A stretch of 58,092 nucleotides of DNA from a virus. Taxonomy: Duplodnaviria; Caudoviricetes. Positions 1 to 58,092 of the stretch are shown here, piece after piece (positions within the stretch are counted from its first letter, which is position 1; each line of letters opens with the position of its first letter). The stretch lies in the IMG/VR virus record IMGVR_UViG_3300037045_000348, positions 1 to 58,092 of that record; one strand, given 5' to 3'. Below the pieces are notes generated by a model. That model was not told the origin of the DNA. It saw nothing but the letters and a program-made list of their open reading frames with translations, and did no database searches. The position numbers and the translations under genes are program-made.

Positions 1-1146
1 TCATGTCGCTGCCTCCAATTGCGCCGCCTTCCCGAGCAGCACGGGTTCTCTTGCTCCGTGGTCCTCGCCCTTGGCCTTCCAATAGGCCACGAGCTTCTGA
101 GCGACCGTCTTCGCTTCTGACACCTCCGGAGCCCGAGCCCGCACGGAGGTTTCGACAATCTCCTCAAGCTTGACCACGATTGCGCCCCGCGCCAGCGCTT
201 CTGCGCGGTACAACTCCGCGCGATTCCGGGCGGCATCTCGATGCTCCGCTGCCACCGTCCAGCGCAGTCGGACCTCAGCGCCGGCGACGTCGGTCAGGCG
301 ATGGAGGCCGAATAGGGTGTTGTGCTCGGGGTCCCAAACGGCGTCTAGCAAAAGCATCGGGGTGGCAGGCGTTTCGACGAACTCCCACCCCCTCCGAACG
401 CTCACCCTGTTGTCGACCCTAATGGTATCCACAATCACGTAGCCCTTCGGGTCGACGTCCCCAAACTCAGTCCTTCGCGGGCTTCCGGGGTAGACGATGG
501 GCTCACGATCGTCCCACGCTTGATGGGCGTGGATGTGCCCAAGGGCCACGAAGTCAGCGCCCGCGAGCCCCAGGTCATCGAGGCCAAGTTCGAGATCGCA
601 TCCCACGAGCGGCTGACCTGCCGTCGTCCGACTCCCCCGCACCATGGCATGGGTAAGCAGGATTCGGGGACCGTCGTGCTGTTCGAGCTGCTGACGGAAC
701 CCGAGCAGGATAGACCGCAGAGCATCGCGTGCGGCGTTCTCGCTTACCTCGTGGGACGCGTGCCCCATCCTCGCCATCAACTCAGCCTTTCGGGGCCATG
801 CGAGGCACGCGACGGCGCACCCTGCGACGTAGCGCACGCACGCCTTTTCCTCGGCAAAGATCGGGTACTTGCTCCCCAGCTTGCCCATGAGCTCGATGTC
901 GCCAAGCGCGTCATGGTTTCCGCGCACGATGACCACCGGAGCTTGCTGCGCCACATCCGCAAGCCATTCGGCCACCTTGAGCCGTTCCGTGGGAGTGCTC
1001 TTCGCGTCGAACAGATCTCCGCTGTGCAGGACCAGATCGACACCGCGCGCGGCAATGTCTCCCTGGATCCACTCGTGGATGCGGCAGGTCTCTTCCCAGC
1101 GCGAGCGCTCGCAAAAGTGACTGTCGGCGATGATTGCGATTCTCAT
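1..1146 (-). CDS. sbcD: SbcD/Mre11-like metallophosphoesterase exonuclease
   Basis: Motifs IADSH, HSGDLFD, RGNHD, THAM, LGHIH, YPGSP; ATG overlaps the stop of the upstream ORF (ATGA 1143-1146). Confidence 0.9.
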   Translation of the reverse strand: MRIAIIADSHFCERSRWEETCRIHEWIQGDIAARGVDLVLHSGDLFDAKSTPTERLKVAEWLADVAQQAPVVIVRGNHDALGDIELMGKLGSKYPIFAEEKACVRYVAGCAVACLAWPRKAELMARMGHASHEVSENAARDALRSILLGFRQQLEQHDGPRILLTHAMVRGSRTTAGQPLVGCDLELGLDDLGLAGADFVALGHIHAHQAWDDREPIVYPGSPRRTEFGDVDPKGYVIVDTIRVDNRVSVRRGWEFVETPATPMLLLDAVWDPEHNTLFGLHRLTDVAGAEVRLRWTVAAEHRDAARNRAELYRAEALARGAIVVKLEEIVETSVRARAPEVSEAKTVAQKLVAYWKAKGEDHGAREPVLLGKAAQLEAAT

Positions 1147-1337
1147 GAGTCCTTGCCTCCAAGGGCGTTGCGGTAAACGCTTGCGGCCTTGTTGTGGACG
1201 TCGATAAGAACGCCTAGCGCTTTCGCGTACTCGGTGGACTTGTCCGAAAGTAGGTTGTAGGCCTCGATCGCTGCGTCGAGTTGTTTGGCCTCTCGCCGAT
1301 ACCCTTCTTGCAACGATGCTTCTAGTATGCGGTTCAT
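1143..1337 (-). CDS. Hypothetical 64-aa helical protein
   Basis: Strong SD AGGAGGA at 1341-1347; stop coupled to the sbcD start. Confidence 0.75.
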   Translation of the reverse strand: MNRILEASLQEGYRREAKQLDAAIEAYNLLSDKSTEYAKALGVLIDVHNKAASVYRNALGGKDS

Positions 1338-1347
1338 TTTTCCTCCT

Positions 1348-1421
1348 TGGTGGAGCGCCCCGGAGTCGAACCGGGATCAGGCCTTTCGGCGGGTACTTCT
1401 GCAGCCGGATACCTGCGCCCC
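1348..1421 (-). ncRNA. tRNA-like RNA with Ala acceptor identity (G3-U70, A73, CCA) and no canonical anticodon arm
   Basis: Acceptor GGGGCGC/GCGCTCC followed by A-CCA; perfect T arm CCCGG-TTCGACT-CCGGG; stem GGTAT/GTACC; hairpin GCC-GAAA-GGC. Confidence 0.75.
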
Positions 1422-1424
1422 AGG

Positions 1425-1450
1425 GCCCCGTCGAGCAGAGACGGGGCTTT
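1425..1450. other. GC-rich hairpin just 5' of the tRNA-like RNA (terminator-like on the + strand)
   Basis: GCCCCGTC-gagcaga-GACGGGGC followed by TTT. Confidence 0.5.
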
Positions 1451-1715
1451 CGGGTCGGGACCATGGGCCAGTCAGCGGACACCACGCGATACAGACACCC
1501 CGCGGCATCGGATTGCCAAAGCTCGACGGGACCCTTCGCGATCACGTGGTCATCGTCGACCAGTTCGGCGCACCATCCTCCATCCGTGCGCAGGATTCGA
1601 ACGGTCGCATACTTCCCGTGTGGATGAAAGCAAGCCGAGGTGATTTCGTCGCAGATGTCGGCCACCGCCTTGGGACTGGATTTGTCCTGAGTCATGCCTT
1701 CTCCTCGCCCCCAGG

Positions 1716-2855
1716 TCAGAAGTTGTCCGGGTCGTCACCCCGGGAATCGTACCCATCGCCCACGGGAGCATGGGCAGGCTCGGAGCCGCTACGGCTCGCA
1801 ATGATGGCCCGCGCTTCGTCGCAAAGTGCGGCGTTCTTCGCCTGCCACTCCGGCTTGCCGGGGTTCTTCTCGTAGTAGGAAATGAGCCTCTCCAAGTGCT
1901 CGCCACCGACGTTCAAAAGGTCGTCTCCCTTCTCCGGGTCGCCTTCCTTCTTCGCCGCCCACGGCCAGACGCCTCCCGAGCTGGATTGCTGTCGAGGGGA
2001 GGATTCGCGCTTCGGGGGAGGTTGACGTGCGGGCAATTGCGGAGCCGCATCCCCATCGTCCTCATCGTCGTAGTCCACCACGGCTGCCATGACCGGAGGC
2101 GCGGGAGACGCGGCAGGAAGGGCAACCTGGGGGCCGGGCGTACCGTAGAGCGCGCGCATGCCGCCCATCATCGCTGCAGCCCTCATCCTGAACGCTTCTG
2201 CTCGCAAGACCGGATCGTCTGTCGCGCCCGTCCACATGAGCTTGGCGACCACGAAGGGTTTCCCCAGTTCCTCCCGCGTGTACGCCGTCCTGATTCCGAG
2301 GGAGCGAATCGCCCGCAGCCTCGCCTTGGTCTCCGCGTGCGCCGCGATGTGTAGGCGCATCTCCCGGATCTGGTTGTCTGCCGCCCGGTTCTTCGCAGCC
2401 GCGCGTTGCTCGAGCGCTTCGACCTGGGGGGAATTGGGCCTCAAGTCCATCTCCTTCGTGCCCATGATCTGAACCTCGGTGCCGTCGAAGTGCCGATAGG
2501 TCCCGACGGCGAGCCACGAGCAATACCGAGGGTCCCGCCCGTCATCGAGACGACGAGACTGGTGCGCATCCCAGGTCACGCCGGCGGCGGCGGCGACCCG
2601 ATCCAGCGCGCTCTTGCCCAGCCCGAACTTGCCCATCCCCACGTCGTAGACTTCTCCGTTGCGCGGGTCCGGGTCGATCTGGATCTGCGAGATTGCCACC
2701 TCGCAGCCTTCGGGGACGGAGGCGATCGCTGTGGCCGGGGCGACCAGGTGATACTTCTCCGAAGCCGTCGAAAGGTGCTGTGTGATCTTCGCGGCGTCTC
2801 GCTGGTAGCCCGTCGCGATGCCCGTTTCCTGCCGTCTTGCCAGTGCCTGTCCCAT
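1716..2855 (-). CDS. Putative single-strand annealing/recombination protein
   Basis: SD GGAGGA; conserved-looking AETKARLRAIRSLG..YTREELGKPFVV core, acidic/Pro-rich tail, near sbcD. Function inferred from context. Confidence 0.5.
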   Translation of the reverse strand: MGQALARRQETGIATGYQRDAAKITQHLSTASEKYHLVAPATAIASVPEGCEVAISQIQIDPDPRNGEVYDVGMGKFGLGKSALDRVAAAAGVTWDAHQSRRLDDGRDPRYCSWLAVGTYRHFDGTEVQIMGTKEMDLRPNSPQVEALEQRAAAKNRAADNQIREMRLHIAAHAETKARLRAIRSLGIRTAYTREELGKPFVVAKLMWTGATDDPVLRAEAFRMRAAAMMGGMRALYGTPGPQVALPAASPAPPVMAAVVDYDDEDDGDAAPQLPARQPPPKRESSPRQQSSSGGVWPWAAKKEGDPEKGDDLLNVGGEHLERLISYYEKNPGKPEWQAKNAALCDEARAIIASRSGSEPAHAPVGDGYDSRGDDPDNF

Positions 2856-2866
2856 GTCGTTCCTCC

Positions 2867-3040
2867 TCAGTTCACAACCGTCGTTTGCAGTTCCTCTTTC
2901 GCCCGCTCCAACCATTCGAGCTGGCGGGTATCCCCCGTCCGAATCGCCCGACACGCGGCCCGGCGTCTCGCCCTCTCCCACGCGAGCCATATGCTTCGCG
3001 CTGGTGGGCAGTACCGATTGATTACGCCTCCGACTTGCAT
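2867..3040 (-). CDS. Hypothetical 57-aa protein (MQVGGVINRY...), below the ORF-track cutoff
   Basis: SD GGAGG before ATG; fills the gap in the operon. Confidence 0.5.
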   Translation of the reverse strand: MQVGGVINRYCPPARSIWLAWERARRRAACRAIRTGDTRQLEWLERAKEELQTTVVN

Positions 3041-3168
3041 AGCGCCTCCAGTGCAGCTTCCACGGCCGCGTCGTCGCCATCGGCCAGCATGTCGACCAGG
3101 GTGCCAAGGCCAAGAGACAGCAGGGCCTCACGCATCACACACAACCTCTCAAATGCCTCCACACTCAT
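3022..3168 (-). CDS. Hypothetical 48-aa acidic protein
   Basis: SD GGAGGAG before ATG 3168. Confidence 0.55.
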   Translation of the reverse strand: MSVEAFERLCVMREALLSLGLGTLVDMLADGDDAAVEAALEALCKSEA

Positions 3169-3182
3169 GACTCCTCCTTCGC

Positions 3183-3362
3183 TCAGATCCCAAGGTCGGA
3201 CCACGACGAGGCCGGAGGAGGAACACTCCCCGTCGCGGGCCGGTCTTGGGATTCGAGCGCTTCGCGCATCTGTTCGACGCGGGTCCGGTGAACTGCAAGC
3301 CACTCAAGCGGCGTCGAGTACTTCATCATGCTGGCAAACATCAATTCGGCGTAGTCGATCAT
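3183..3362 (-). CDS. Hypothetical 59-aa protein (MIDYAELMFA...)
   Basis: ATG directly follows the stop of the DUF6884 gene; fills the gap. Confidence 0.5.
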   Translation of the reverse strand: MIDYAELMFASMMKYSTPLEWLAVHRTRVEQMREALESQDRPATGSVPPPASSWSDLGI

Positions 3363-3818
3363 CTACGCTCCCAACTCCTGCCCCGCGGCGAGGGCCTTGT
3401 AGAGCACCCCGATGGACACCGCGGCAGCACGCCCGCGCATTCCGTGGTTCTCTCGACAAACCCGCAGGGCGCGAATGTAGCTCTCTACGTAGGGGAAGCT
3501 CTGCAGGGGCGCCATGTACGCGGCCCCCAAGATCGTCGTGAAGATCGTGTCCCGATCGTACCGGCGCATGAGCTCATCCCGACATCGGTCGACCCATGCC
3601 TGGCGCTCAGTAGGGGCGAGCGCGTCGAGGCGGAGGTCGTAGGGCTCGATTACCGTATCGGGGTCCACCACGCCGTACTTCGCGGAGAGGATGACCCACG
3701 GCATCCTCTTGTCCATCCACGCTGCGGCCGCCCGAAACGTCCGCGAGCAGTAGATCTCGCGGGCCGGGGCAGGCCGGTCCAGCTTGGTTTTCGAGCAGCC
3801 GATGATTCCGACTCTCAT
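3363..3818 (-). CDS. DUF6884-family (YaaA-like) protein
   Basis: GCSKTK..PAREIY.S..F...ILSAKYG..P...IEPYD signature. Confidence 0.75.
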   Translation of the reverse strand: MRVGIIGCSKTKLDRPAPAREIYCSRTFRAAAAWMDKRMPWVILSAKYGVVDPDTVIEPYDLRLDALAPTERQAWVDRCRDELMRRYDRDTIFTTILGAAYMAPLQSFPYVESYIRALRVCRENHGMRGRAAAVSIGVLYKALAAGQELGA

Positions 3819-3967
3819 GACACCGGCTCCTTGCCGTACGGGTAGACCCTCCCAGCCAGGCGTTTCGCCTCGCGCAACGCGGCATGTTTCGTGCGATACA
3901 ACTCATGCACAGTGCGCCCTTGCGCGTCCCGGTAAACCACTGTCCAGCGGAATTCGTTCGCCCTCAT
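3815..3967 (-). CDS. Hypothetical 50-aa protein
   Basis: ATGA-coupled at both ends. Confidence 0.55.
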   Translation of the reverse strand: MRANEFRWTVVYRDAQGRTVHELYRTKHAALREAKRLAGRVYPYGKEPVS

Positions 3968-4197
3968 GCCACCCTCCGCATCAAAGCCCGCACGGCCAGG
4001 TCCGGATCCCGCGGGTCCAGCTCGCTCTCGTCCCACTCGCCGGATTGGATCGTGACAGCGCGTGTCGACCCACAAGGGCAATTGGCCAGCTCGATAACCT
4101 CACCCCACTCGAACGTCTGCCGGCCGATGCAGCGCAGAAACAGCCACGTGAGAGCGGTGTAGGCGCGACCGCAGGAGCAGAGGACGATAGGGTTCAT
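3964..4197 (-). CDS. Hypothetical Cys-containing protein
   Basis: CSCG and CPCG motifs; translationally coupled. Confidence 0.6.
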   Translation of the reverse strand: MNPIVLCSCGRAYTALTWLFLRCIGRQTFEWGEVIELANCPCGSTRAVTIQSGEWDESELDPRDPDLAVRALMRRVA

Positions 4198-5006
4198 GCT
4201 GCCTCCGAGCGCAGGCGCTTGCCACCCGCGACCTGGTTCAGTCGGGCCAGTAGGTCGAGCCGGCGAAAAGCAAGGTGTGCGTTTCCGTTCCCAAACACCC
4301 GGAACTCGAAAAGGTCCGTCTTGCCACGGCCAACCTCACGCGGACACGCCTCAATTGCCCGCTGCAATGCGCTGTAATGGTCCTTTGCGATCTGGCCCTT
4401 GCCGTCGAGCCCATAGAACACGTTTTCCAGCGCGATGAGCTTTTGCGCGGTGTAATAATGGACGCGAAACTGTCCCGGGGCCCACCGCTTGTCCACGGGG
4501 TCCACAATCCCAGTCAGGACGACACGACGCGGAATCTCGTATTGGCTGTTGGTCTTGTAGCGATCGCTGCGGGGGCGAAGCCAATCATGAACTTCGCGCA
4601 CCGCTTCCTCGAACATCGTAGGCAAGTCGGCGGCCCATTTGGCGACGAACGCTGTAACCGATTGCTCGGTAATGGAAGGCAAGTCGATGCCGTCTCGAAT
4701 CTGGCGTTCGAGTTTCCCCCATCGCTCGATCGACATGGCGCGGCGGAGCTCAAGGCGGTCAACGATTGCTTCCCACGCGTCGCGCGCCATGCGACCAACC
4801 GCGGCGTCAGGGTCGTCGAATCGGCTCCCCCAGTGGTCGGAGGCTGAGATGGTGATTTTGCGGTAGTCGCCGAAGCCAAAGGCTAGATTCACGTCATGCT
4901 GTGCCTGCGTCAACGCGGCGAAGCTGAGCCGCACCTGAGCCTCGGCTCGCTGGAAAGCGGCTACCAACTCAGTCACGGTGGCGCGGCGGGCAAGATCGGC
5001 GCTCAC
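4194..5006 (-). CDS. DUF4942-domain protein
   Basis: C-terminal FEFRVFGNGNAHLAF..DLL.RLN motif; GTG start overlaps the upstream stop. Confidence 0.75.
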   Translation of the reverse strand: MSADLARRATVTELVAAFQRAEAQVRLSFAALTQAQHDVNLAFGFGDYRKITISASDHWGSRFDDPDAAVGRMARDAWEAIVDRLELRRAMSIERWGKLERQIRDGIDLPSITEQSVTAFVAKWAADLPTMFEEAVREVHDWLRPRSDRYKTNSQYEIPRRVVLTGIVDPVDKRWAPGQFRVHYYTAQKLIALENVFYGLDGKGQIAKDHYSALQRAIEACPREVGRGKTDLFEFRVFGNGNAHLAFRRLDLLARLNQVAGGKRLRSEAA

Positions 5007-5374
5007 GCTGCCGCCCCCTTCTGATGGGCCGCAACGCACCGTTGGCACGCGCTACCAGGCTCGTTTCTCCCGTGCTTGCAGGCCTCGCAGTCGGGCTCCT
5101 GGCGCTCCCGGAGGGCCCGAAGCGTCACCTGGCGGACCGCCATGGCCTTGTCTCCCCCGAGGACGGGCACCGATGCCACCACCTGCCCGCCCACGTAGAC
5201 CACGGCGCGGCCGTTCGAGATGGCGACGCCTGGATGGTGCAGAACGGCGGACAGTGCCTCCTGAGCCGCGTTGAGCGCCTGCGTGACAACGTCGTTTGGG
5301 AGCTTCCGCCCACAGCTCGGGCAGCCGGCAGGCTGCGACGTGCCTTTCCCCCCACAGAGGCAACAGGGACTCAT
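5003..5374 (-). CDS. Hypothetical protein with CxxC pairs
   Basis: Coupled start/stop; several CxxC motifs. Confidence 0.55.
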   Translation of the reverse strand: MSPCCLCGGKGTSQPAGCPSCGRKLPNDVVTQALNAAQEALSAVLHHPGVAISNGRAVVYVGGQVVASVPVLGGDKAMAVRQVTLRALRERQEPDCEACKHGRNEPGSACQRCVAAHQKGAAA

Positions 5375-5613
5375 GCTGCCACCTCCAAGCTTGCCCACCA
5401 CTTGCTATCTTCCACCATGCGCTCAAGAGCCTCTGAGCGGTCGGTGGAGACGCCGATCGCCAGGGAGTCCCTCTGTCCCGTCGACGTGACGCGGGCAACG
5501 TAGACGTGCAGGTCACGCCGCCATTCCCGGCAGACGGTGACCACTGGCGGGGTGTCGGACAGGTGGTCGGGCAGCGCCCGAAGCGCTTCCAGCTTCGCCT
5601 GGGGAAGGTTCAT
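5371..5613 (-). CDS. Hypothetical protein
   Basis: Coupled ORF in the leftward operon. Confidence 0.55.
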   Translation of the reverse strand: MNLPQAKLEALRALPDHLSDTPPVVTVCREWRRDLHVYVARVTSTGQRDSLAIGVSTDRSEALERMVEDSKWWASLEVAA

Positions 5614-5825
5614 GCCGCCACCTCTTCCCAGGTCCCGCCGACTTCCGCGGCGCGCGCCTTGGCGAGGTCCGCAGTGTGGGCCTTGCCGATGACCTTGCCG
5701 CGAGCGAGGCGGACCAGGAAGGTCTTCTCGCTGGCCCGTGCAAGGCGACCCGTGCGCGTCTCGGTGGGGCGCATGCCCTCGCAGGAGAAGTCCAGGTCCG
5801 AAGAGTCGATTTCGCGTGTCAGCAT
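5610..5825 (-). CDS. Hypothetical protein, first gene of the leftward early operon
   Basis: SD AGGAGGA; lies downstream of a sigma70-like promoter. Confidence 0.65.
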   Translation of the reverse strand: MLTREIDSSDLDFSCEGMRPTETRTGRLARASEKTFLVRLARGKVIGKAHTADLAKARAAEVGGTWEEVAA

Positions 5826-5843
5826 GGTTCGTTCCTCCTGATG

Positions 5844-5897
5844 CTCACTATAGCGATAGCGAGGAACGAGTCAAGGGTTTGTTATCGTTTTTGTGAT
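5844..5897. promoter_or_regulatory. Two operator-like imperfect palindromes (OL-like)
   Basis: CTCAC-TATA-GCGAT (5844-5857) and ATCGT-TTTT-GTGAT (5884-5897) match ATCGC-N4-GCGAT. Confidence 0.6.
5847..5874 (-). promoter_or_regulatory. Leftward early promoter (PL-like)
   Basis: TTGACT-16nt-TATAGT on the minus strand. Confidence 0.7.
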
Positions 5898-5979
5898 AGA
5901 CTTGCGCACACTGTGCGTTCGACAATTCTCAACCTGAGACTTGACCCCGTTCTGTTTCTTTTGAAGCGAATCTGGAAAA

Positions 5980-6672
5980 GTGGATCTGCTACGAGAATGG
6001 AGCGAGCATCCGTCCATGACGTGGCAGCAGATCGAAGGCGAAGCCGAGTATGTGCTGCGGTTGGCAGCGCTGGACGACTTCGTTCGGGTCCCTGTTCGCC
6101 CAGCGGTCGAGGCGGTCTTGGGACCAGGGTCGCTTCGCCTCGTGTCCAGGCGCGAGCTACGAGTTGGAGCGGTGGCCGAGCTCGGCACGGACAACGGAAG
6201 GACAGTGATCCGAGTGGCTCACGGGTTACCGATCGCCGCGGGTCGGTTCGCCGCGGCGCACGAGCTCGGGCATGCGGTGCTCGAGCACGAGCGACGGAGG
6301 GACGACCAGATCGAGGCGGAGGCTGACCGGTTCGCCGCTGCCATGCTCATGCCATGGCGCGCGTTTCACTGTCTGCGTGCCGAGGTTGGAGACGACCTCG
6401 AGGGGCTGGCCGACGTCTTTCTTGTCACGCAGACCGCGGTGGCGCTCCGCCTGGGGGAGGTTGGCGAGGTGGCAGCATCCATCGTGGTTGCCCCGGGATG
6501 TGTTCGTGCTCGCTCGCTGGAGGAGATCGTGCTTCCGACGGAGGAGGACCTTCGATGGCTCGCTCGCGCGTCTGATGAGGAGCTCGAGCGGGTCGGGCCT
6601 GGGATCAAGAAGGCTACGCTGACAGATGACCCTCGGCGCGTCGCGCTGGTGTTGAAGAACGAAGCCGGATGA
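5980..6672 (+). CDS. immA: ImmA/IrrE-family Zn metallopeptidase (anti-repressor); start may be ATG 6016
   Basis: RFAAAHELGH...EAEADRFAAAMLMP motif. Confidence 0.85.
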   Translation: MDLLREWSEHPSMTWQQIEGEAEYVLRLAALDDFVRVPVRPAVEAVLGPGSLRLVSRRELRVGAVAELGTDNGRTVIRVAHGLPIAAGRFAAAHELGHAVLEHERRRDDQIEAEADRFAAAMLMPWRAFHCLRAEVGDDLEGLADVFLVTQTAVALRLGEVGEVAASIVVAPGCVRARSLEEIVLPTEEDLRWLARASDEELERVGPGIKKATLTDDPRRVALVLKNEAG

Positions 6673-6685
6673 GAAGAGGTGACGG

Positions 6686-7762
6686 ATGACGTACATGGAG
6701 AAGATCAAGGTGCTGGCGGACAGGGCCCCGAAGATGCTCGGACATCTGCAGACGGAGGAGGCCACGAAGAACGCGCTCGTCATGCCGTTCATTGCCGCGC
6801 TCGGCTACGACGTCTTTGACCCGACGGAGGTGGTCCCAGAATTCACGGCGGACGTCGGAACAAAGAAGGGAGAGAAGGTCGACTACGCAATCAAGCGTGG
6901 CTCCGAGATAGTGATTCTTGTCGAGGCCAAGACAGCCGGTGGACAACTGTGCGACACCCATATGAGCCAACTGTACCGGTACTTTTCGGTCACCAACGCC
7001 AGGATTGCCCTTCTGACAAACGGTTTCGTGTATCGGTTCTTTTCTGACCTCGACGAGCCCAACAAGATGGACTCCAAGCCCTTCTTGGAGGTTGATTTGC
7101 GGGACCTGAGGGAAGAGCTACTACTTGAACTGAAGAAGCTAACCAAGGAGGCTTTTGATCTCGAGACGATGCTGGCGACAGCAAACGATTTGAAGTACCT
7201 GCGGGAGATCCGTCGCGTGTTGGACAGCGAACTGAAGGAACCGAGCGAAGAGTTCGTTCGCTTCTTTTTTGCTCGAGCAAATCCAACTGGACGGTTTACA
7301 CAGTCGGCCCGAGAGCAGTTCTCTCCCCTGGTCGGGCAGGCCCTCAACCAGTTCGTGGCCGACAAGGTGTCCGAGCGACTTCGTGCCGCGCTCGAGAGGC
7401 CCAAGGCTCCCGAGCCTCCTGATGCACCGTTGCCAGAAGACGAAGACCGAATCGTTACCACCGAAGAAGAGCTTGAGGGATTCCGGGTCGTGAAAGCGAT
7501 CTGTTGTGGCGTCTTGCCCGCCGGTCGCATCACATTCCGGGACACGAAGAGCTACTTCGGCGTGCTTTGCGACGACAACAACCGCAAGCCCATCTGTAGG
7601 CTACACTTCAACCGTACCCAGAAGTACATCGGCCTATTCGACGAGGCCAAGGCCGAAACAAGGCACGCGCTCGCGTCAACCGACGACATCTACGCTTTCT
7701 CGGAGCAGCTCAGGGAGGCGGCGGGTCGCTACGCTGCCCAGCCGGTTTCCTCGGAGGAGTAA
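6686..7762 (+). CDS. Stand-alone HsdR N-terminal-domain PD-(D/E)XK nuclease
   Basis: TEEATKNALVMPF, KVDYAI...LVEAK, QLYRYF, LLTNG motifs; no helicase domain. Confidence 0.85.
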   Translation: MTYMEKIKVLADRAPKMLGHLQTEEATKNALVMPFIAALGYDVFDPTEVVPEFTADVGTKKGEKVDYAIKRGSEIVILVEAKTAGGQLCDTHMSQLYRYFSVTNARIALLTNGFVYRFFSDLDEPNKMDSKPFLEVDLRDLREELLLELKKLTKEAFDLETMLATANDLKYLREIRRVLDSELKEPSEEFVRFFFARANPTGRFTQSAREQFSPLVGQALNQFVADKVSERLRAALERPKAPEPPDAPLPEDEDRIVTTEEELEGFRVVKAICCGVLPAGRITFRDTKSYFGVLCDDNNRKPICRLHFNRTQKYIGLFDEAKAETRHALASTDDIYAFSEQLREAAGRYAAQPVSSEE

Positions 7763-15468: not shown

Positions 15469-15854
15469 CCCTCCAGGTCTTCACGGCGCGGATCGACTAC
15501 CCAGGACCTGGCCGGCTCGACATCACGCGCAAGAGCGGTAACGCCGCGTTCGCCCCGTCGTGGGAGATCATCCTGGCAGCAAAGCGGGGCCTGCTTCCTT
15601 GGCCCGATTACGTCGTCGAGTACACGGCCCAGATGCGCCGATCGTACCGCGAGACGCGCGCGGAGTGGGAGGCGCTACTCGGCGGACAGCGCGTCGTTCT
15701 GTGCTGCTTTTGCGTCGCCCCAGCTCAGTGCCACCGGACGATCCTCGCAAGGATACTGGGCGAAACGAAGGCGTTTGACGCGAAGTTCTTCGGCGAGATT
15801 ACCGAGTGGGACGAGACAGTGGAAGAACCTGTGTTTGCGAGGAGGAGCGCATGA
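15465..15854 (+). CDS. DUF488-like protein
   Basis: FAPSWEI...VLCCFC...CHRTILA. Confidence 0.65.
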   Translation: MTLQVFTARIDYPGPGRLDITRKSGNAAFAPSWEIILAAKRGLLPWPDYVVEYTAQMRRSYRETRAEWEALLGGQRVVLCCFCVAPAQCHRTILARILGETKAFDAKFFGEITEWDETVEEPVFARRSA

Positions 15855-16831
15855 GCTGGTTTCGCCTCGACGACAACGGCTACGACCACGACAAGGTGCT
15901 GAGCGCCGGGGACCGAGCCTACGGCGCATGGTGTCGCGCCGGCCAGTACGCCTCGAACAAAAAGACGGACGGCTTCGTGTCACACCGGGCCGCGAAGCAG
16001 ATCAACAGCGACGTGCGCGTATGGAAGAGACTCGTCGAAGTTGGACTGATGGAGTCCGCCGAAGGCGGGTACGTCATCCACGACTACCTTGACTACAATC
16101 CAAGCAAGGCGGAACTGGAGGCGAAGAGTGAGGCTAGGCGGGCCGCCGGAGCCCTCGGGAGCGAGGCGAGGTGGGGCAAGAACTCGGAGCGGATCGCGAT
16201 CGAAAGGCACCAACTCTGCGATCGAACCGACCCTACTTTGCGATCGAAAGGCACCAACTCTGCGATCGAACCGACCCTACTTTGCGATCGAAAGGCACCA
16301 ACTCTGCGAGCGGATTCGGAGCAAGTGCGCGAAAACATTGGCGGAGAGGATGGCAACCGCTATGGCGGGTGCCAAGCGACGCCGGATACTCCCGTCCCGT
16401 CCCGTCCCGACCCATTACATACAGATCAGATCCCCCCTGTAGTCCCCCCGCGGGGGACGCGGGAGCAGGAACCCGACTTCGACCTGACCCCGCCAGACCC
16501 CGACCCCCCGAAGTCGAAACGCCCCCGGACCATCAAGACTGTCCTCCCGACTGACTGGGCCCCGAGCGCTGCTCACCACCAACAGGCGATGACAGAGGGT
16601 GGGAAGCCAGCCTCATGGGTCGAGTCCGAGGCCATGCGCATGCGCGATTGGGCCTCGTCGAAGGGAGAGCGATGCGCCGACTGGGATGCGAGGTTTCGGA
16701 ATTGGATCCGGCGGGCTCTCGATGACGGGAGGGGCCCCAGACCAAACGGCCCAAGTGGCGGCGGCTACCGAACGAAGATCCAACCCCCAACGGGCGTCAC
16801 CTTCAGGACGCTAGACGTGGACGACCTATGA
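15851..16831 (+). CDS. Phage replication initiator
   Basis: N-terminal WFRLDD...YVIHDYLDYN, C-terminal DWDARFRNWI; internal iterons; upstream of a loader ATPase. Confidence 0.8.
   Translation: MSWFRLDDNGYDHDKVLSAGDRAYGAWCRAGQYASNKKTDGFVSHRAAKQINSDVRVWKRLVEVGLMESAEGGYVIHDYLDYNPSKAELEAKSEARRAAGALGSEARWGKNSERIAIERHQLCDRTDPTLRSKGTNSAIEPTLLCDRKAPTLRADSEQVRENIGGEDGNRYGGCQATPDTPVPSRPDPLHTDQIPPVVPPRGTREQEPDFDLTPPDPDPPKSKRPRTIKTVLPTDWAPSAAHHQQAMTEGGKPASWVESEAMRMRDWASSKGERCADWDARFRNWIRRALDDGRGPRPNGPSGGGYRTKIQPPTGVTFRTLDVDDL
16196..16309. repeat. Replication-origin iterons: five 22-bp units in A-B-A-B-A order
   Basis: A=GCGATCGAAAGGCACCAACTCT, B=GCGATCGAACCGACCCTACTTT, exact copies. Confidence 0.85.
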
Positions 16832-20221: not shown

Positions 20222-20740
20222 ATGACGCAGAAGACGATGGCGACGAAGACCAAGCCGAAGCCGAAGACGACCAAGGTCACGCCAATAACGCTGCGCACGA
20301 TGGACCGGGCCGCGAAGGCGCTCGAGATGAAGCGTGATGGCGCCACGTACGACGCCATCGGCAAGAAGCTCGGCATAACCAGGCAGGCCGCGTGGAAGCT
20401 CATCCAGAATCGGTTCGCGGATATTCGGAAGCAGACCGAGGAGTCCGCTGAGGATGTGCGGGATCAACAGCTCATGCGTCTGGACGGGTTTCTCTTCGCT
20501 CTGCGTGGAAAGGTGAAGCGAGGGGACCCTCGGGCCATCGATTCAGCGCTGCGTATCGAGGACAGGCGAGCCAAGCTGCTCGGACTGGACGCCCCATCGC
20601 GAACAGAGGTGAGTGGTCCCGACGGTGGAGCAATCGAAATCGAAGACGCCCGTGGACAGCTCGCCGAAGCGCTTGCGCGACTTGCTCCGCAGGATGAGCC
20701 CGAGCCAGGTCCGTCAGGCGATAGCGACGCTGCCGGATGA
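20222..20740 (+). CDS. terS: Terminase small subunit
   Basis: N-terminal HTH, RRAKLLGLDAP, EVSGPDGGAI; directly upstream of terL. Confidence 0.8.
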   Translation: MTQKTMATKTKPKPKTTKVTPITLRTMDRAAKALEMKRDGATYDAIGKKLGITRQAAWKLIQNRFADIRKQTEESAEDVRDQQLMRLDGFLFALRGKVKRGDPRAIDSALRIEDRRAKLLGLDAPSRTEVSGPDGGAIEIEDARGQLAEALARLAPQDEPEPGPSGDSDAAG

Positions 20741-22742
20741 ATCGGCGCGAGTTCTTCTCTACGATTGGCGAGGTGTCTGGGCGCGGGAGCAACAGCTTCC
20801 GCCCGATTGGGCCTGGGTCATCTGGCTCATTCTTGCGGGACGAGGGTACGGCAAGACAAGAACCGGGGCGGAGTGGGTCCGTGACCGAGTAGAGTCCGGC
20901 CAGGGCAAGCGACTCATCATCGCGGGGCCCACGTCCGACGACATCCGGGACATCATGATTGAGGGGGAGTCCGGCCTTCTGGCCGTTTCCCCGCTGTGGA
21001 ACAAGCCCATCTACCTGGCGAACAAGAGTCAGGTGGTGTGGCCGAAGTGTGGAGCCAAGGCGCTGTGTATCACGGCGGAGAAGCCGGACAGGTTTCGCGG
21101 GAAGCAGTGTTTCGTTGCTGGGACGATGGTCGCCACATCACGAGGCGATGTCCCAATTGAGAGAGTTGTTGCTGGCGACAAGGTTCTCACGCGTCATGGA
21201 TATTTCAGCGTGTCGAACCTCATGTCGTCGGTGGCCGAAGTCGGCCGAGTCTTGTTTTCGGACGGGACGTCGCTTGTTGGCACGCGTGACCACCCTGTGT
21301 GGTCGGGAGGCGATTGGTGGGAACTGGGGTACCTATCTGCGGGGTCGAAAACGTGGTCTGGAGAGTTGGGACGAACGGCTACGTCATCGGGTACGCCGAC
21401 GGGAAGCATTGCATCCAGCACCGCGTCATTTGGGAGCAGAATTACGGTCCCATACCCGACGGATGGCACGTGCACCACAAGGACGGGGACAGGGCGAACA
21501 ATGCCCTGTCAAACCTCGAATGCATCCCCCAGCGGATTCACTACGACCGACATATCGACAGTAGAGAGTGGAAAGACGTCGTTTGCTCCGAGTGCGGTAG
21601 AACCTACACAAGAGCGCGACGAGGCAGCGGCGTGTGTCCCTCGTGCCAACAGGCAAGAGCGGACGCTGCACGATCGAGGAACGAAAAGATTTGTCTCTAC
21701 TGTGGAAGGGCGTTTCTTACTCGCTCTGGCCGATACTGTTCGCAGCGTTGTGTCAACCTGGGAGCACGTTGGGGCAAGGCGGGTCTTCAACCTGACAGTT
21801 GAAGGGTGCCACGAGTACTTCGCGAACGGCGTGCTCGTTCACAACTGCGATTCGTTCTGGGCAGACGAACTCGCGAGCTGGCGATATCCGGACGCCTGGA
21901 ATCAGCTACAGCTCGGGTTCCGGCTCGGGACGAATCCGCAGGGCATCGTCACCACTACCCCGCGGCCAACTCTGCTGATCAAGAAGCTGGTAGCGAGAGC
22001 TGGGCAAGACGTCGCGATGACGCGCGGCACGACCTACGACAACCGAGCGAACCTCGCAAAACAGTTTCTGGAACAGATCATTCGCGAGTATGAGGGGACG
22101 AGGCTGGGCAGGCAGGAGCTCGAGGCCGAAATCCTCGAGGACAACCCGAACGCCCTTTGGGCTCGTGCGCGCATTGACGACTTGCGCGTCATGTCGCGCG
22201 AGGGCCTGCCTCAGATGCGCAGGGTCGTGGTTGCGATCGACCCCGCGGTGTCGACCAACCCGCGCAGCAACGAGACAGGCATCATCGTTGTGGGCCTCGG
22301 CGAGGATGGGCACGCATACGTACTCGACGATCTGTCCGGCATCTACTCCCCAGCCCAGTGGGCCGCACGGGCGATTGAAGCATTCGACAGGTGGGAAGCC
22401 GACTACATCGTCGGCGAGGTCAACAATGGCGGCGACCTCGTTGAGCGAAACGTGCAGGTGGAACGAGACGACGCGCCACCGTTCAAGTCGGTGCACGCCT
22501 CTCGAGGCAAGCAGGTCCGCGCAGACCCGATCTCGACACTGTACGAGCAGGGCAGGGTCCACCACCTCGGCATCCTGGGTCGTCTCGAGGACCAGATGTG
22601 CGGGTGGGACCCGGCAAATGATGATGATTCTCCAGACAGGGTGGATGCTCTGGTTTGGGGCGTCACGTTCCTGGACCTGAATAAGAAGCTGCAGGACTAC
22701 GACGGAATTCGTCGTGGAAGACGAAGCGCGAGAGGACGATGA
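20694..22742 (+). CDS. terL: Terminase large subunit containing an intein
   Basis: AGRGYGKT Walker A, FWADE Walker B, VTTTP, AIDPA, DRVDA nuclease motifs. Confidence 0.95.
   Translation: MSPSQVRQAIATLPDESARVLLYDWRGVWAREQQLPPDWAWVIWLILAGRGYGKTRTGAEWVRDRVESGQGKRLIIAGPTSDDIRDIMIEGESGLLAVSPLWNKPIYLANKSQVVWPKCGAKALCITAEKPDRFRGKQCFVAGTMVATSRGDVPIERVVAGDKVLTRHGYFSVSNLMSSVAEVGRVLFSDGTSLVGTRDHPVWSGGDWWELGYLSAGSKTWSGELGRTATSSGTPTGSIASSTASFGSRITVPYPTDGTCTTRTGTGRTMPCQTSNASPSGFTTTDISTVESGKTSFAPSAVEPTQERDEAAACVPRANRQERTLHDRGTKRFVSTVEGRFLLALADTVRSVVSTWEHVGARRVFNLTVEGCHEYFANGVLVHNCDSFWADELASWRYPDAWNQLQLGFRLGTNPQGIVTTTPRPTLLIKKLVARAGQDVAMTRGTTYDNRANLAKQFLEQIIREYEGTRLGRQELEAEILEDNPNALWARARIDDLRVMSREGLPQMRRVVVAIDPAVSTNPRSNETGIIVVGLGEDGHAYVLDDLSGIYSPAQWAARAIEAFDRWEADYIVGEVNNGGDLVERNVQVERDDAPPFKSVHASRGKQVRADPISTLYEQGRVHHLGILGRLEDQMCGWDPANDDDSPDRVDALVWGVTFLDLNKKLQDYDGIRRGRRSARGR
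21108..21845 (+). mobile_element. Intein (246 aa) in TerL
   Basis: Begins CFVAGTMV (block A), has TRDHPV (block B), ends VFNLTVEGCHEYFANGVLVHN followed by Cys+1. Confidence 0.95.
21317..21802 (+). CDS. HNH homing endonuclease with C-terminal Zn ribbons, nested in a different frame inside the intein
   Basis: HRVIWEQNYGPIPDGWHVHHKDGDRANNALSNLEC; SD GGGAGG at 21305-21310 before GTG 21317. Confidence 0.85.
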   Translation: MGTGVPICGVENVVWRVGTNGYVIGYADGKHCIQHRVIWEQNYGPIPDGWHVHHKDGDRANNALSNLECIPQRIHYDRHIDSREWKDVVCSECGRTYTRARRGSGVCPSCQQARADAARSRNEKICLYCGRAFLTRSGRYCSQRCVNLGARWGKAGLQPDS

Positions 22743-40843: not shown

Positions 40844-41776
40844 ATGACACGGTTGGCAAAGAGCAAGTCGTGGAACTTCTCGCTCAACAATCGTTGTGTC
40901 GGGGCTAACGCAAATGAGTCTTGCAAGATCGCAATGCTCTTGCAGAAGAACACTCTTGTTTCGTGGGGGTGGACTGTAGTTCGAAGCTGCGACAAGACCA
41001 ACATCGCAGACGCGGATCTGTGGAACACAATCGCAGATGTGAACTGGGGTTATAGTACGGGGGTTCGCTCCTGGACTGTTCTTCAACATCCCCTGCATAC
41101 CATGCAAATCTGCTTCTTCTTGACAAGTTACTCTTCCAACAATTCTCACAAGTGGCAAAGCATCTACCTGTCGTGGTCAGGGGACTTTTCAGGTGGAGCG
41201 ACAAATTCGGCGCCTACGGCAGGGGATAGGATCACACTTCTTGAGGGTGGATTCACGAACGATTCCGCCGTTCCCGTTGTGCTTCACATGATGCAGTCGA
41301 CAGATCAATCCTGCACAAGGCTCCTCAGGTTGGCGAGTAACAAGGTTGAAAACGCCATGTTCTTCGAGACGTTGGCCGACACTCGGGCCGAGATCCCGAA
41401 GGGAATCTTGTTCGTTGCGGGAGGGTTGTCCGACGGATACACGTACGCAAACTTCCAACGGATTAGCAAGTTCCGGGGCCTGTTCAACGGAGCAGACGAC
41501 TCGGCCATCCGGCTTGCTAGCTTAGGCGTGAGCGCTGTTGGGTTGGGAGAGACGTGGAACACGCTGAATCGCTACAACGTGATACCTTACTGCGAAATCT
41601 ACCCTTACACACTCACGCACAAGGTTATTCTGGGAAAGATGCAGGACCTTTGGTTTGGCCCAACCCTCTCAGCGAACAACGGAACACCATACCCAAGTGC
41701 GACTGAGGCAAATCAGTTTGCTCAATTCAACCACTTCGTCTTTCCTTGGGATGGATCAATCCCGGTGATTGCATAG
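40844..41776 (+). CDS. Putative receptor-binding/tail fibre protein, paralog 1
   Basis: Baseplate context; visibly lower GC; paralogous to the next gene. Confidence 0.6.
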   Translation: MTRLAKSKSWNFSLNNRCVGANANESCKIAMLLQKNTLVSWGWTVVRSCDKTNIADADLWNTIADVNWGYSTGVRSWTVLQHPLHTMQICFFLTSYSSNNSHKWQSIYLSWSGDFSGGATNSAPTAGDRITLLEGGFTNDSAVPVVLHMMQSTDQSCTRLLRLASNKVENAMFFETLADTRAEIPKGILFVAGGLSDGYTYANFQRISKFRGLFNGADDSAIRLASLGVSAVGLGETWNTLNRYNVIPYCEIYPYTLTHKVILGKMQDLWFGPTLSANNGTPYPSATEANQFAQFNHFVFPWDGSIPVIA

Positions 41777-41783
41777 GCTCCCA

Positions 41784-42722
41784 ATGCCCAGATTAGCGAA
41801 GAGCAAGTCGTGGAACTTCTCGCTCAACAATCGGATTGTTGGGGCTAACGCAAATGAGTCTTGCAAGATCGCAATGCTCTTGCAGAAGAACACTCTTGTT
41901 TCGTGGGGGTGGACTGTAGTTCGAAGCTGCGACAAGACCAACATCGCAGACGCGGACACGTGGGGTACGATTGCAGACGTGAATTGGGCAAGTTCCGCGG
42001 GGGTGCCCAGGTCGTGGACTATTCTTCAACACCCACTTTACAGCATGCAACTCTGCTTCTTCTTGACGTCGTACTACTACAACGGTTCTCACAAGTATTT
42101 CTACGTTTACATGTCGCGGTCAGGGGACTTTTCGGGCGGAACAACATCCACCCCTCCTACTGCTTCGGATAGAGTCACAATTGTCGATGGTGTTAGCGCA
42201 TTCACAAGCGATACCGTTACTCCCGTCGTGCTTCACATGATGCAATCGACAGATCAGTCTTGTACAAGGCTTCTCAGGCTGGCAGATAACAAGGTTGGAA
42301 ACATCATGTTCTTCGAAGCACTGGCTGGGTCAAAGCCGGAGTTGTCCCAGGGGATCTTGTATGCAAACCCGGCATTGTCTGACGGATTTACACACGCAAA
42401 CTTCCAACGGACGAGTAAGTTTCAAGGTTCGTTCGATGGAGTTGAGGACTCGGCCATCCGGCTTGCTAGCTTAGGCGTGAGCGCTGTTGGGTTGGGAGAG
42501 ACGTGGAACACTGCTAACTACGACGGTCTTCTTCCGAGTCTTGAAATCTACCCGTACTCTCTCACACACGAGACCGTCTTGGGAAAGATGCAAGACCTCT
42601 GGTTCGGCCCGAGCGGTCTTAGCAATGGAAATACGTACCCGAGTGAAACCGAGGAGAAGCAGTTTGCTCAGTTCAACCACTTCATTTTCCCTTGGGACGG
42701 GTCTGATCCCCTAATAACGTAA
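41784..42722 (+). CDS. Putative receptor-binding/tail fibre protein, paralog 2
   Basis: Colinear with 40844..41776 and shares identical DNA blocks with it. Confidence 0.6.
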   Translation: MPRLAKSKSWNFSLNNRIVGANANESCKIAMLLQKNTLVSWGWTVVRSCDKTNIADADTWGTIADVNWASSAGVPRSWTILQHPLYSMQLCFFLTSYYYNGSHKYFYVYMSRSGDFSGGTTSTPPTASDRVTIVDGVSAFTSDTVTPVVLHMMQSTDQSCTRLLRLADNKVGNIMFFEALAGSKPELSQGILYANPALSDGFTHANFQRTSKFQGSFDGVEDSAIRLASLGVSAVGLGETWNTANYDGLLPSLEIYPYSLTHETVLGKMQDLWFGPSGLSNGNTYPSETEEKQFAQFNHFIFPWDGSDPLIT

Positions 42723-56920: not shown

Positions 56921-56942
56921 GTTCAAATCCCCCTGGGGACGC
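56921..56942 (+). other. Putative attP core: 3' fragment of a tRNA-Glu gene
   Basis: GTTCAAATCCCCCTGGGGACGC = T loop, 3' T stem and GGGGACG acceptor strand; overlaps the integrase stop. Confidence 0.7.
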
Positions 56943-58092
56943 TGCTTGATGAGTCGTACACGGCGAGCAAGGCTCCCGTCGTGACCGTCCCCTCGATGCG
57001 AAAGCGCTTGCCGTCGGAGGTTTCCGTGGGCGTGAGGGTCAAGGGTCCGTCCAACAGGGCGTCGAGGACCTTGCGCGCCTCAACGGGGTTCCGTTCCAGA
57101 AGGCTGCGCAGCTGCTGAAGCCTCTCGCGCGCCTCCCTTTCCATTCGACGAGTCTCGAGGTCGATGGCCGAGGGCGCCGCCTGCGTGGTCGCCAATCTGG
57201 CCTTGAGGGACTCCAGGCGCCACTCTCTTTCCTCGATCATCTTCAGCACCACCTGTGGCGGTTTGTCGGCGCTGAGGAGCGCCTCACCGAGCCGGCGGAC
57301 CTCGTCTTCGAGCTCCTGAATCTGTCCCTGCAAGGCCGGAATCTCAGCGTCGAACTTCTTGCTCCGTTCCGCCAGGCGTCTGCGAACCTCTTTCAGTACT
57401 TCAGCGATCAGCTCTTCCTTGAGGATGTTTTTCTGGATCCACGTCGAGATGGCTGCATCGACGCTCGACACCGGCCGATGAAGGGAGCTTGGGCAAACGC
57501 TGTTGCCCCGGGTCCGGTGCCACGCGCAGACGTACTTGCCGACGTTGGTGGTCCCTGCCCGGCCGCTGGTTGCGTTGATCGGGCCGCCACAGACTCCACA
57601 GCGGGCGTAGCCGGTGAGGAAGTAGCGGGGCCCTTTGCCCTTGGGCCCACGCAGCCCCGTCCGAGCTTGGTTCGAAGCAATGCGCTGTTGCACTGCGTTC
57701 CATTGGTCGTCGCTCACGATGCGAAGGTTCTCGTCGACGATCTCGACGCAGGGATCGCTCGGCACCCGCACCTTCGTGCCGCCGCGGTACGTCTTGTGGA
57801 CCTTTCCCCAAGTGAGCCTGCCAGCGTAGCGCTCGCGGCGTAGCATCGCCCAAACACACGAGGGGGACCACGACCCTGTCCCGCGCTTGCCAGCTCTGGG
57901 CGCAGGAACGCCACGTTCGTTCAAGTCCTTGGCGATTGCACGTACTCCGTCACCAGAGCCGAAGCGGTCGTAGATCTCACGCACAATGCCCGCCTGCGCG
58001 TCGTTGATCCGGTACTCCACGTGCGAGCGGCGTTCCCTGTCGACGGCGGCCACAAACCGCGTGACTTCAGGGGTTAGCGCCTGACACCCCAC
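56923..58092 (-). CDS. int: Large serine recombinase (integrase), N-terminus outside the window
   Basis: Recombinase domain (IAKDLNERG, YAG..WGK, IVSDDQWNAVQ), Zn ribbon LTGYARCGVCG...YVC..C, coiled coil. Confidence 0.9.
   Translation of the reverse strand: MGCQALTPEVTRFVAAVDRERRSHVEYRINDAQAGIVREIYDRFGSGDGVRAIAKDLNERGVPAPRAGKRGTGSWSPSCVWAMLRRERYAGRLTWGKVHKTYRGGTKVRVPSDPCVEIVDENLRIVSDDQWNAVQQRIASNQARTGLRGPKGKGPRYFLTGYARCGVCGGPINATSGRAGTTNVGKYVCAWHRTRGNSVCPSSLHRPVSSVDAAISTWIQKNILKEELIAEVLKEVRRRLAERSKKFDAEIPALQGQIQELEDEVRRLGEALLSADKPPQVVLKMIEEREWRLESLKARLATTQAAPSAIDLETRRMEREARERLQQLRSLLERNPVEARKVLDALLDGPLTLTPTETSDGKRFRIEGTVTTGALLAVYDSSSSVPRGI

Follow-up and report, generated by a model that had tools for sequence, protein, structure and literature searches.

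The IMG/VR virus record IMGVR_UViG_3300037045_000348 carries a 74-nt tRNA-like element on the minus strand at 1348-1421 of the stretch of DNA analyzed here (58,092 nt at its full length, referred to below as the window). As a reading of the sequence, a shuffle test and the homologs at the loci L003 and L097 bear out, this element is a real, conserved and anticodon-less tRNA look-alike and not a product of chance. We tentatively take it, at somewhat below even confidence, for a co-transcribed, divergent and shortened relative of the transfer-messenger RNAs (tmRNAs) that consist of the tRNA-like domain (TLD) only, that is, for an alanine-type mimic of tRNA and tmRNA that would be excised from a longer transcript. 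We speak of a divergent variant and not of a demonstrated TLD-only tmRNA because the joining segment of such RNAs is missing from it and because the tmRNA models do not match it.

Anatomy of the element

When the sequence was re-read, the 74-nt minus-strand anatomy given in an initial annotation of this DNA (an acceptor of seven base pairs including G3-U70, a T arm without mismatches, A as the discriminator, and CCA) was exactly as described. From its 5′ end, the element consists of the acceptor 5′ strand GGGGCGC (1421-1415), a variable body of 39 nt (1414-1376), a T stem-loop with five base pairs and the loop TTCGACT (1375-1359), the acceptor 3′ strand GCGCTCC (1358-1352), the discriminator A (1351), and an encoded CCA (1350-1348), all on the minus strand. 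The acceptor comprises seven pairs, G3-U70 among them, and its end (G1-C72, G2-C71, G3-U70, G4-C69, A73, and CCA) presents the set typical of tRNA-Ala and tmRNA. The 7-bp acceptor, the 5-bp T stem and the TΨC-type loop are stacked in tRNA geometry in the window, an arrangement kept at L003, L097, and a further locus, L236. No mRNA-like domain or tag reading frame lies between the acceptor strands of the window element, which measures 74 nt in all.

The real 58-kb window holds a single instance of a 7/7 acceptor with a 5/5 T stem and a TTCRANY loop in tRNA geometry, and the same acceptor/T-arm core appeared in 3.3% of 300 dinucleotide shuffles of that window (mean 0.037 per shuffle), in a test that was scored without the ACCA tail and without the homologs. 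The stretch 1194-1616 is covered by contigs of four other sequencing runs, possibly of one campaign, with 0 differing letters and 0 gaps; because these contigs are identical there, the sequence of this stretch is not a one-off assembly error.

The element is not a canonical tRNA, in that it does not form a cloverleaf with a D arm, a 5-bp anticodon stem, a 7-nt loop and an anticodon. ARAGORN called 0 genes in the whole 58-kb window, and Rfam gave nothing at gathering score, the best local match being tRNA-Sec (13.7 bits, E=7), which spans the acceptor and T arm alone. A blastn search of the element against cultured phages returned matches to the T arms of ordinary tRNAs only.

Homologs and sequence conservation

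Relatives were sought via the SbcD-like protein encoded downstream of the element, which gave five distinct related loci. The closest homolog of the element is at L003 (2920-2992, plus strand), upstream of an SbcD-like gene 71% identical in protein; it is preceded by a hairpin and CU, and GAGGTG begins 1 nt past its CCG, followed by the SbcD-like start codon. L090 is the same DNA as L003, with the element deep inside a 433-kb metagenome contig, and the metagenome scan returned L090 and the cut 2-kb contig L089 only. The SbcD-like relatives at 41-52% identity (L002/L005, L006, and L008) are without the element, and there the upstream gene adjoins the SbcD-like gene. Genome contigs scanned with the SbcD-like alignment gave distant cellular SbcD/Mre11 homologs (≤36% identity) only and no prophage copy. 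The contig of L089, which holds the closest SbcD-like relative (82% identical), is cut 107 nt upstream of the gene; where the window has its tRNA-like element, these 107 nt (1-107, plus strand) form a leader of another kind with strong structure (z -3.56), and an 11-nt string within their first 18 nt also occurs on the T-stem/acceptor 3′ side of L003. A genuine tRNA-Thr(TGT) (L096, 1501-1573, plus strand), the T arm of which is identical to that of the window element, and a tRNA-Arg(CCT) (L095, 1501-1574) are encoded on the same contig as L003.

The second full homolog, L097 (1273-1194, minus strand), came from a pattern scan of viral contigs and has the same acceptor and nearly the same T arm, set between an SSB-like (DUF669) gene and a dnaN-like gene. 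A GCCCCG hairpin lies 6 nt upstream of it and GGAGG 3 nt past its discriminator, with no ATG, GTG, or TTG within the 12 nt after GGAGG. A fourth member, L236, resembles L097. A signature is common to the window, L003 and L097, namely a very stable hairpin 2-6 nt before the 5′ end with a fold energy at or below the fourth percentile locally (the fourth percentile in L003, the lowest among local windows in L097), and a GGAG/GAGG motif 1-4 nt past the 3′ end.

L003 matches the window at 28 of 32 positions (88%) in the acceptor, T arm and discriminator and at 13 of 39 (33%) in the body, which has diverged as much as neutral sites; for the adjacent SbcD-like gene, identity is 77% at the first, 81% at the second, and 48% at the third codon position. 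Because the ends are so much better conserved than the body and the third codon positions, we conclude that both ends of the element are under purifying selection, while the sequence of the body is essentially free. Two of the four differences in the conserved part amount to a compensatory C-G to G-C swap at T-stem pair 49-61. The alanine identity that the initial annotation had proposed stands in full for the window (G3-U70, A73, and CCA) and fails in the closest homolog, L003, where G3-C70 and an A-G mismatch at 7-66 are the other two of these differences and CCG stands for CCA. The alanine set (G3-U70, A73, and CCA or C74) is present in the window, L097, and L236.

Fold of the variable body

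The initial annotation had placed a 3-bp GAAA hairpin in the anticodon-arm position and had offered, as an alternative, a D-armless tRNA with TGC in a 12-nt loop. Both the 3-bp GAAA hairpin and the 5-bp stem with the 12-nt loop can be drawn in the window sequence, and neither survives comparison with L003: the GNRA hairpin keeps two of its three pairs there with its loop becoming AGCA, which is not of the GNRA type, and TGC is absent. The D-like stem in the body pairs at 0 of 5 positions in L003 and is 50% paired across the two sequences. No conserved anticodon-type hairpin is found in the 39-nt body of the window element.

A candidate body-closing helix, which we regard as P2a-like, pairs 1410-1404 with 1382-1376 within 1376-1410 of the minus strand (element positions 12-18 with 40-46; six pairs and a single C-U mismatch) and reaches up to the T stem without a gap. 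In the window and L003 taken together, 84.6% of its cells are paired and two double changes are seen (U-A to C-G and C-G to U-A), in a comparison of two sequences only in which 45 of 500 shuffles reach the score. A rival 4-bp helix (positions 8-11 with 40-43) shows invariant pairs plus mismatches and does worse. The best-supported topology, judging from these covariations, would be a three-way junction in which the acceptor and the T arm meet a helix that closes the body and adjoins the T arm, which is of the type of the tRNA-like domain in tmRNA and not a cloverleaf.

Three other constructions were set aside. A body helix that opens with a tandem G-A in the style of tmRNA is possible in the window and not in L003 or L097; an alternative acceptor formed with the 3′ strand of the upstream hairpin (6/7 pairs) has no support in L003; and a MAFFT alignment that included the upstream hairpins was discarded, its repeated GGGGC motifs having been mis-registered.

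A wider class in viral contigs

Alanine-type tRNA-like RNAs without an anticodon occur commonly among viral contigs. At least 120 viral-contig loci matched a relaxed pattern (GGGGCG, a gap, the T-loop core, and CGCNCCA); all members of this class were retrieved by means of the acceptor and T-loop pattern of the window itself. Among the matches listed, 122 in number, 93 overlap ARAGORN tRNA calls and 29 do not (28 loci and 27 distinct sequences), and U70 occurs in 21 of these 28 uncalled loci. The pattern GGGGCGC...GCGCNCCA, with the seventh acceptor pair as in the window, matched 18 viral-contig loci, of which 13 were not called by ARAGORN (12 distinct); U70 was present in 18/18, though any base was allowed there.

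Constrained folds of 30 phage elements mostly consist of the acceptor, an unpaired segment of 8-12 nt, often of the GGUUUCGAC type, a long hairpin, 0-3 nt, and the T arm, a topology like that favoured above for the window element. Several members match the Rfam model RF00023 end-to-end with the middle deleted, at 58.2 (L194), 58.0 (L103), 45.7 (L181), 43.4 (L163), 27.1 (L144), and 23.0 bits (L158). Look-alikes of L103 of ~80 nt lie in the Streptomyces phages LuckySocke, GiJojo, and pSt2308 (H53-H55), where they bear no feature or are annotated as "hypothetical protein." The acceptor, the T arm and the GCCCCG hairpin are shared by L097 and L236, which also retain a 10-11-nt joining segment of the CUUGGU type; in the MAFFT alignment, the window and L003 have an 11-nt gap at exactly this segment. 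The class grades from clear tmRNA heads to forms, like that of the window, which are recognized by no detector.

Some single loci of the scan show features of their own. The alanine-type, TLD-like element of L158 (1759-1852, plus strand) also gives a weak mascRNA-menRNA match (24.5 bits), and ~500 nt downstream of this element is a match to YrlA, a bacterial Y RNA-like model (1201-1270, plus strand; 38.9 bits, below gathering score). ARAGORN calls a tRNA-Arg(tcg) at L229 (1501-1570, plus strand) and a tRNA-Pyl(cta) at L225 (1501-1569, minus strand); because of its GGUUUCGAC tmRNA-type segment and its TLD-like fold, the L229 call looks like a mislabelled tag-less tmRNA-like RNA.

The loss of the joining segment of L097/L236 from the window and L003 raises the possibility that the element is a decaying relic of a TLD-only tmRNA or of a tRNA-Ala gene on which selection has ceased in this lineage. 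The further damage in L003 (G3-C70, the 7-66 mismatch, and CCG), the 33% identity of the body and the failure of the detectors would agree with such decay. Against it are the 88% identity of the acceptor and T arm vs 48% at neighbouring third codon positions, the double compensatory changes in both the T stem and the body-closing helix, and the hairpin/Shine-Dalgarno arrangement, which is kept in three contigs and two gene contexts; we therefore consider decay unlikely.

Relation to known tRNA-like RNAs

Phage TLD-only tmRNA-like RNAs are known in print from essentially one case, that of Mycobacterium phage DS6A, and are mostly unannotated. The DS6A tmRNA, which lacks the coding sequence (CDS) and is entered as tmID 11587 in the tmRNA Website (PMC4131195; PMC11915505), inhibits endogenous tmRNA in Escherichia coli (PMC11915505). 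We located this RNA at JN698994 28478-28560 (L220, 3479-3561), where GenBank has no feature, between gp33 and the dnaN-like gp34; it matches RF00023 end-to-end at 34.7 bits.

Like the DS6A RNA, the window element is phage-encoded and alanine-type, in a size range of ~75-83 nt, with a 7-bp acceptor, G3-U70, A73, and a canonical T arm; it is likewise without an anticodon arm or tag frame, its candidate helix would close the body beside the T arm, and it sits in a block of replication/recombination genes, co-oriented with its neighbours. The relative L097 shares with the DS6A RNA the position upstream of a dnaN-like gene. Because tag-less tmRNAs of the TLD-only kind exist in phages, the initial annotation's comparison with the tRNA-like domain of tmRNA is an apt one. 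The differences are also clear: DS6A keeps the tmRNA D-loop analog (UGGUGGUCGAC type), where the window has 0-4 nt; the window, unlike DS6A, gives no RF00023 match at E≤10; and the window element, unlike that of DS6A, has a tight hairpin before it and a Shine-Dalgarno site directly after it, and its closest homolog has lost G3-U70.

Tag-less tmRNAs have also been described from jakobid mitochondria and Mallomonadaceae plastids (PMC11915505). These resemble the window element in being minimal RNAs reduced to the tRNA-like domain, ~65-77 nt long. They differ from the phage RNA of the window in that they are organellar and co-occur with SmpB, and RF02544 gives no match to the window at E≤10.

The acceptor minihelix of tRNA-Ala and tRNA-Ala itself form a further point of reference, which reportedly goes back to Hou and Schimmel in 1988 and to McClain and Foss in 1988. 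The GGGGC...GCUCC-A-CCA acceptor with G3-U70 is like that of the tRNA-Ala minihelix. Unlike tRNA-Ala, the element has no D arm, anticodon arm or anticodon, and it is not called by ARAGORN or RF00005.

Genomic setting and cistron boundary

The phage of the window is temperate and tailed, and has Mu-like head genes, a baseplate and a CII-like regulator; the record is classed in IMG/VR as a provirus and is estimated to be 78% complete. Its portal protein has best matches 33-38% identical (Meiothermus, Thermus, and Myxococcus phages), and no phage record near-identical to window 1-6000 was found. A sigma-70-like promoter match (5847-5874, minus strand; 10/12 hexamer matches to a consensus that may not be the host's) is the sole match in 1-7500, and 5874-5847 is likely the start of a leftward early operon that would hold the element ~4.4 kb from its beginning. 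The scan of 1-7500 gave no promoter or terminator match of the element's own near it.

The gene order, all on the minus strand, is a 471-aa gene, an open reading frame (ORF) starting at 1695, the hairpin, CCU, the element, a 64-aa ORF, and the SbcD-like gene. The 471-aa gene (1716-3131; PHROG 13782) has a homolog that precedes the element in L003 and adjoins the SbcD-like gene in the relatives without the element. The following ORF (1422-1695) begins with ATG at 1695, preceded by GAGGAG, and has no in-frame stop; its frame continues without interruption across the hairpin, the element and the 64-aa ORF into the SbcD-like gene, giving a 564-aa ORF (1-1695). The third-position GC of 0.68-0.80 in this frame over 1660-1420 is coding-like, and its sequence is identical in the contigs of the four other runs. 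No homologs were found for it at lengths of 50-160 aa, and no Pfam or PHROG family. A G+C-rich 8-bp hairpin (1425-1447, minus strand; -16.7 kcal/mol, lower than every local control window) ends 3 nt (CCU) before the first base of the element. On the other side, the Shine-Dalgarno sequence AGGAGG (1342-1347, minus strand) begins one base past the encoded CCA, as the initial annotation had seen; it is followed by the 64-aa ORF (1143-1337, minus strand; ATG at 1337), which has no Pfam or PHROG family and no counterpart in L003. Downstream is the gene for the SbcD-like metallophosphoesterase/nuclease (1-1146, minus strand; Pfam Metallophos, 1.5e-14; PHROG 100 SbcD-like, 3e-22).

This setting recalls the t-elements of plant mitochondrial mRNAs, which are tRNA-like folds at mRNA boundaries, thought to direct cleavage by RNase P and RNase Z (Forner et al., 2007; PMC1920247). 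In both cases a stem-loop plus a tRNA-like structure would mark mRNA ends inside longer transcripts, and the window element does lie between co-oriented minus-strand genes at a cistron boundary, a position shared by the elements of L003 and L097. Unlike the window element, t-elements are organellar and derive from various tRNAs, with no alanine bias in the abstract of PMC1920247.

The element may be pure punctuation of the mRNA in cis, a phage counterpart of t-elements: its fold would recruit RNase P and 3′ processing, the message would be cut between the upstream genes and the SbcD-like module, the hairpin would protect the new 3′ end, and the excised RNA would have no job of its own. This explanation has much in its favour, namely the hairpin 2-6 nt before the 5′ end and the GGAG/GAGG motif 1-4 nt past the 3′ end in all three of the window, L003, and L097, the absence of a separate promoter or terminator match near the element, and the persistence of structure and context in L003 despite the loss of G3-U70 and CCA. 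Furthermore, the parts that are conserved are only those read by RNase P, RNase Z, and the CCA-adding enzyme, while the body drifts. Bacterial RNase P prefers U at -1, and U precedes G1 in both the window and L003. The t-elements provide a precedent (PMC1920247). Cleavage, however, needs no full alanine set, encoded CCA or exact T loop, all of which the window and L097 keep, and the class is biased to U70; the SbcD-like relatives at 41-52% identity manage without the element; and in the wider class the enrichment of the hairpin is modest, with 7 of 29 elements in the lowest 10% of local windows. On balance, we regard punctuation without any further role, which takes up the RNase P processing signal offered as an alternative in the initial annotation, as a strong and close rival of the excised mimic, if a somewhat less likely one.

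tRNA and tmRNA genes are common integration sites, and the record is classed as a provirus, which might suggest an attachment-site remnant. A search for the signs of such a remnant that the initial annotation had left open did not find a partial copy with a matching repeat. Both acceptor strands are present, no second copy of the 3′ half occurs in the window at up to three mismatches, phage genes of the same orientation border the element in three contigs, in L090 it is deep in the 433-kb contig, and the sole recombinase seen is of the serine type and 55 kb away (56923-58092, truncated at the right end of the window). As both acceptor strands are there, no repeat is found in the window and the element is inside operons in three contigs, an attachment-site remnant or a chance look-alike is disfavoured, the latter also by the low expectation in the shuffles; we give either very little credence indeed.

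Other features of the window are far from the element. At 16196-16327 (plus strand), a 22-nt unit of which two versions (GCGATCGAA... type) alternate is repeated five to six times in tandem, in or beside the ORF 15806-16831, which precedes an IstB/DnaC-like ATPase gene; the units look like replication-origin iterons. The large terminase ORF (20613-22742, plus strand; 709 aa) has Hint_2 and PT-HINT matches at residues ~166-249, before Terminase_6N/6C, which suggests an intein or a Hint insertion. In the tail-gene region, two tandem paralogous genes (40844-42722, plus strand; 310 and 317 aa) contain repeat families 73-90% identical with ~945-nt spacing in a lower-GC stretch (57-59%).

Possible function and implications

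RNase P and the 3′ tRNA-processing enzymes are expected, from what they recognize, to act on a co-transcribed tRNA-like RNA of such a shape. We infer excision, charging and a function in trans as follows. Host tRNA-processing enzymes would recognize the acceptor/T-arm stack, RNase P would cut before G1421, and 3′ trimming would stop at or after ACCA, so that an RNA of ~74 nt would be released. The upstream message would be left ending in the protective hairpin plus CCU, and the downstream message would be left starting at its own Shine-Dalgarno site. The freed RNA would show the complete acceptor end of tRNA-Ala/tmRNA without the decoding part, and because this full end (G3-U70, A73, and CCA) is presented, alanyl-tRNA synthetase (AlaRS) could recognize it and probably charge it. 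Once charged, it might compete with host tmRNA or tRNA-Ala for their partners, as is reported for the TLD-only RNA of DS6A, an inhibitor of trans-translation (PMC11915505).

The role in trans that we tentatively favour would be consistent with the complete alanine set of the window, L097, and L236, with the U70 bias of the class, and with the DS6A precedent. Several observations weigh against it. The 8-12-nt D-loop analog (GGUUUCGAC type) is missing in the window, where 0-4 nt are left; in tmRNA this segment is contacted by SmpB and the T loop. The body, in addition to lacking this SmpB-related segment, appears to drift freely. L003 has neither G3-U70 nor CCA and nevertheless retains the structure, the hairpin and the adjoining Shine-Dalgarno sequence, and because it does so, a function that needs neither charging nor SmpB would fit. 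The folding energy is unremarkable, with z-scores of -1.18 for the element and -0.82 with its flanks, none of the four values obtained (-1.18, -0.46, -0.82, and -0.54) being significant. RF00023, RF02544, and RF00005 gave no match to the window at E≤10, and the tmRNA models gave none to L097 and L003 at E≤1. Finally, the subgroup rests on two full homologs in the searched data.

An RNA that keeps the acceptor/T-arm half and the alanine identity, with the SmpB-related segment absent, might also act independently of SmpB and tmRNA, as a decoy for defences or for enzymes that act on acceptor ends or Ala-tRNA, such as 3′-end toxins, AlaRS and EF-Tu, which it would sequester, or tRNA-dependent aminoacyl transferases. 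Its early-operon location would suit such a decoy, but the three contexts seen show no linkage to a defence or counter-defence gene, L003 is without the alanine identity and CCA, and the literature consulted offers no experimental precedent for a decoy RNA of this type, so that we think a decoy rather improbable.

The window, L003, and L097 might instead represent a distinct module of hairpin, alanine-type minihelix and Shine-Dalgarno site that has shed the SmpB-related part and serves both as punctuation and as a chargeable minimal alanine RNA. In such a module, the 5′ cleavage would turn the ORF 1695-1422 into a non-stop message, its protein being tied to ribosome rescue; this is an improbable idea in our view.

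The element makes one ask how a phage would benefit from an RNA reduced to the parts that AlaRS, RNase P, the CCA-adding enzyme, and EF-Tu recognize. Should it inhibit trans-translation without the SmpB-binding segment, a new mode of interference would be indicated. If it is a cutting signal only, it would be a tRNA punctuation of a bacterial virus with a built-in stabilizer of the 3′ end.

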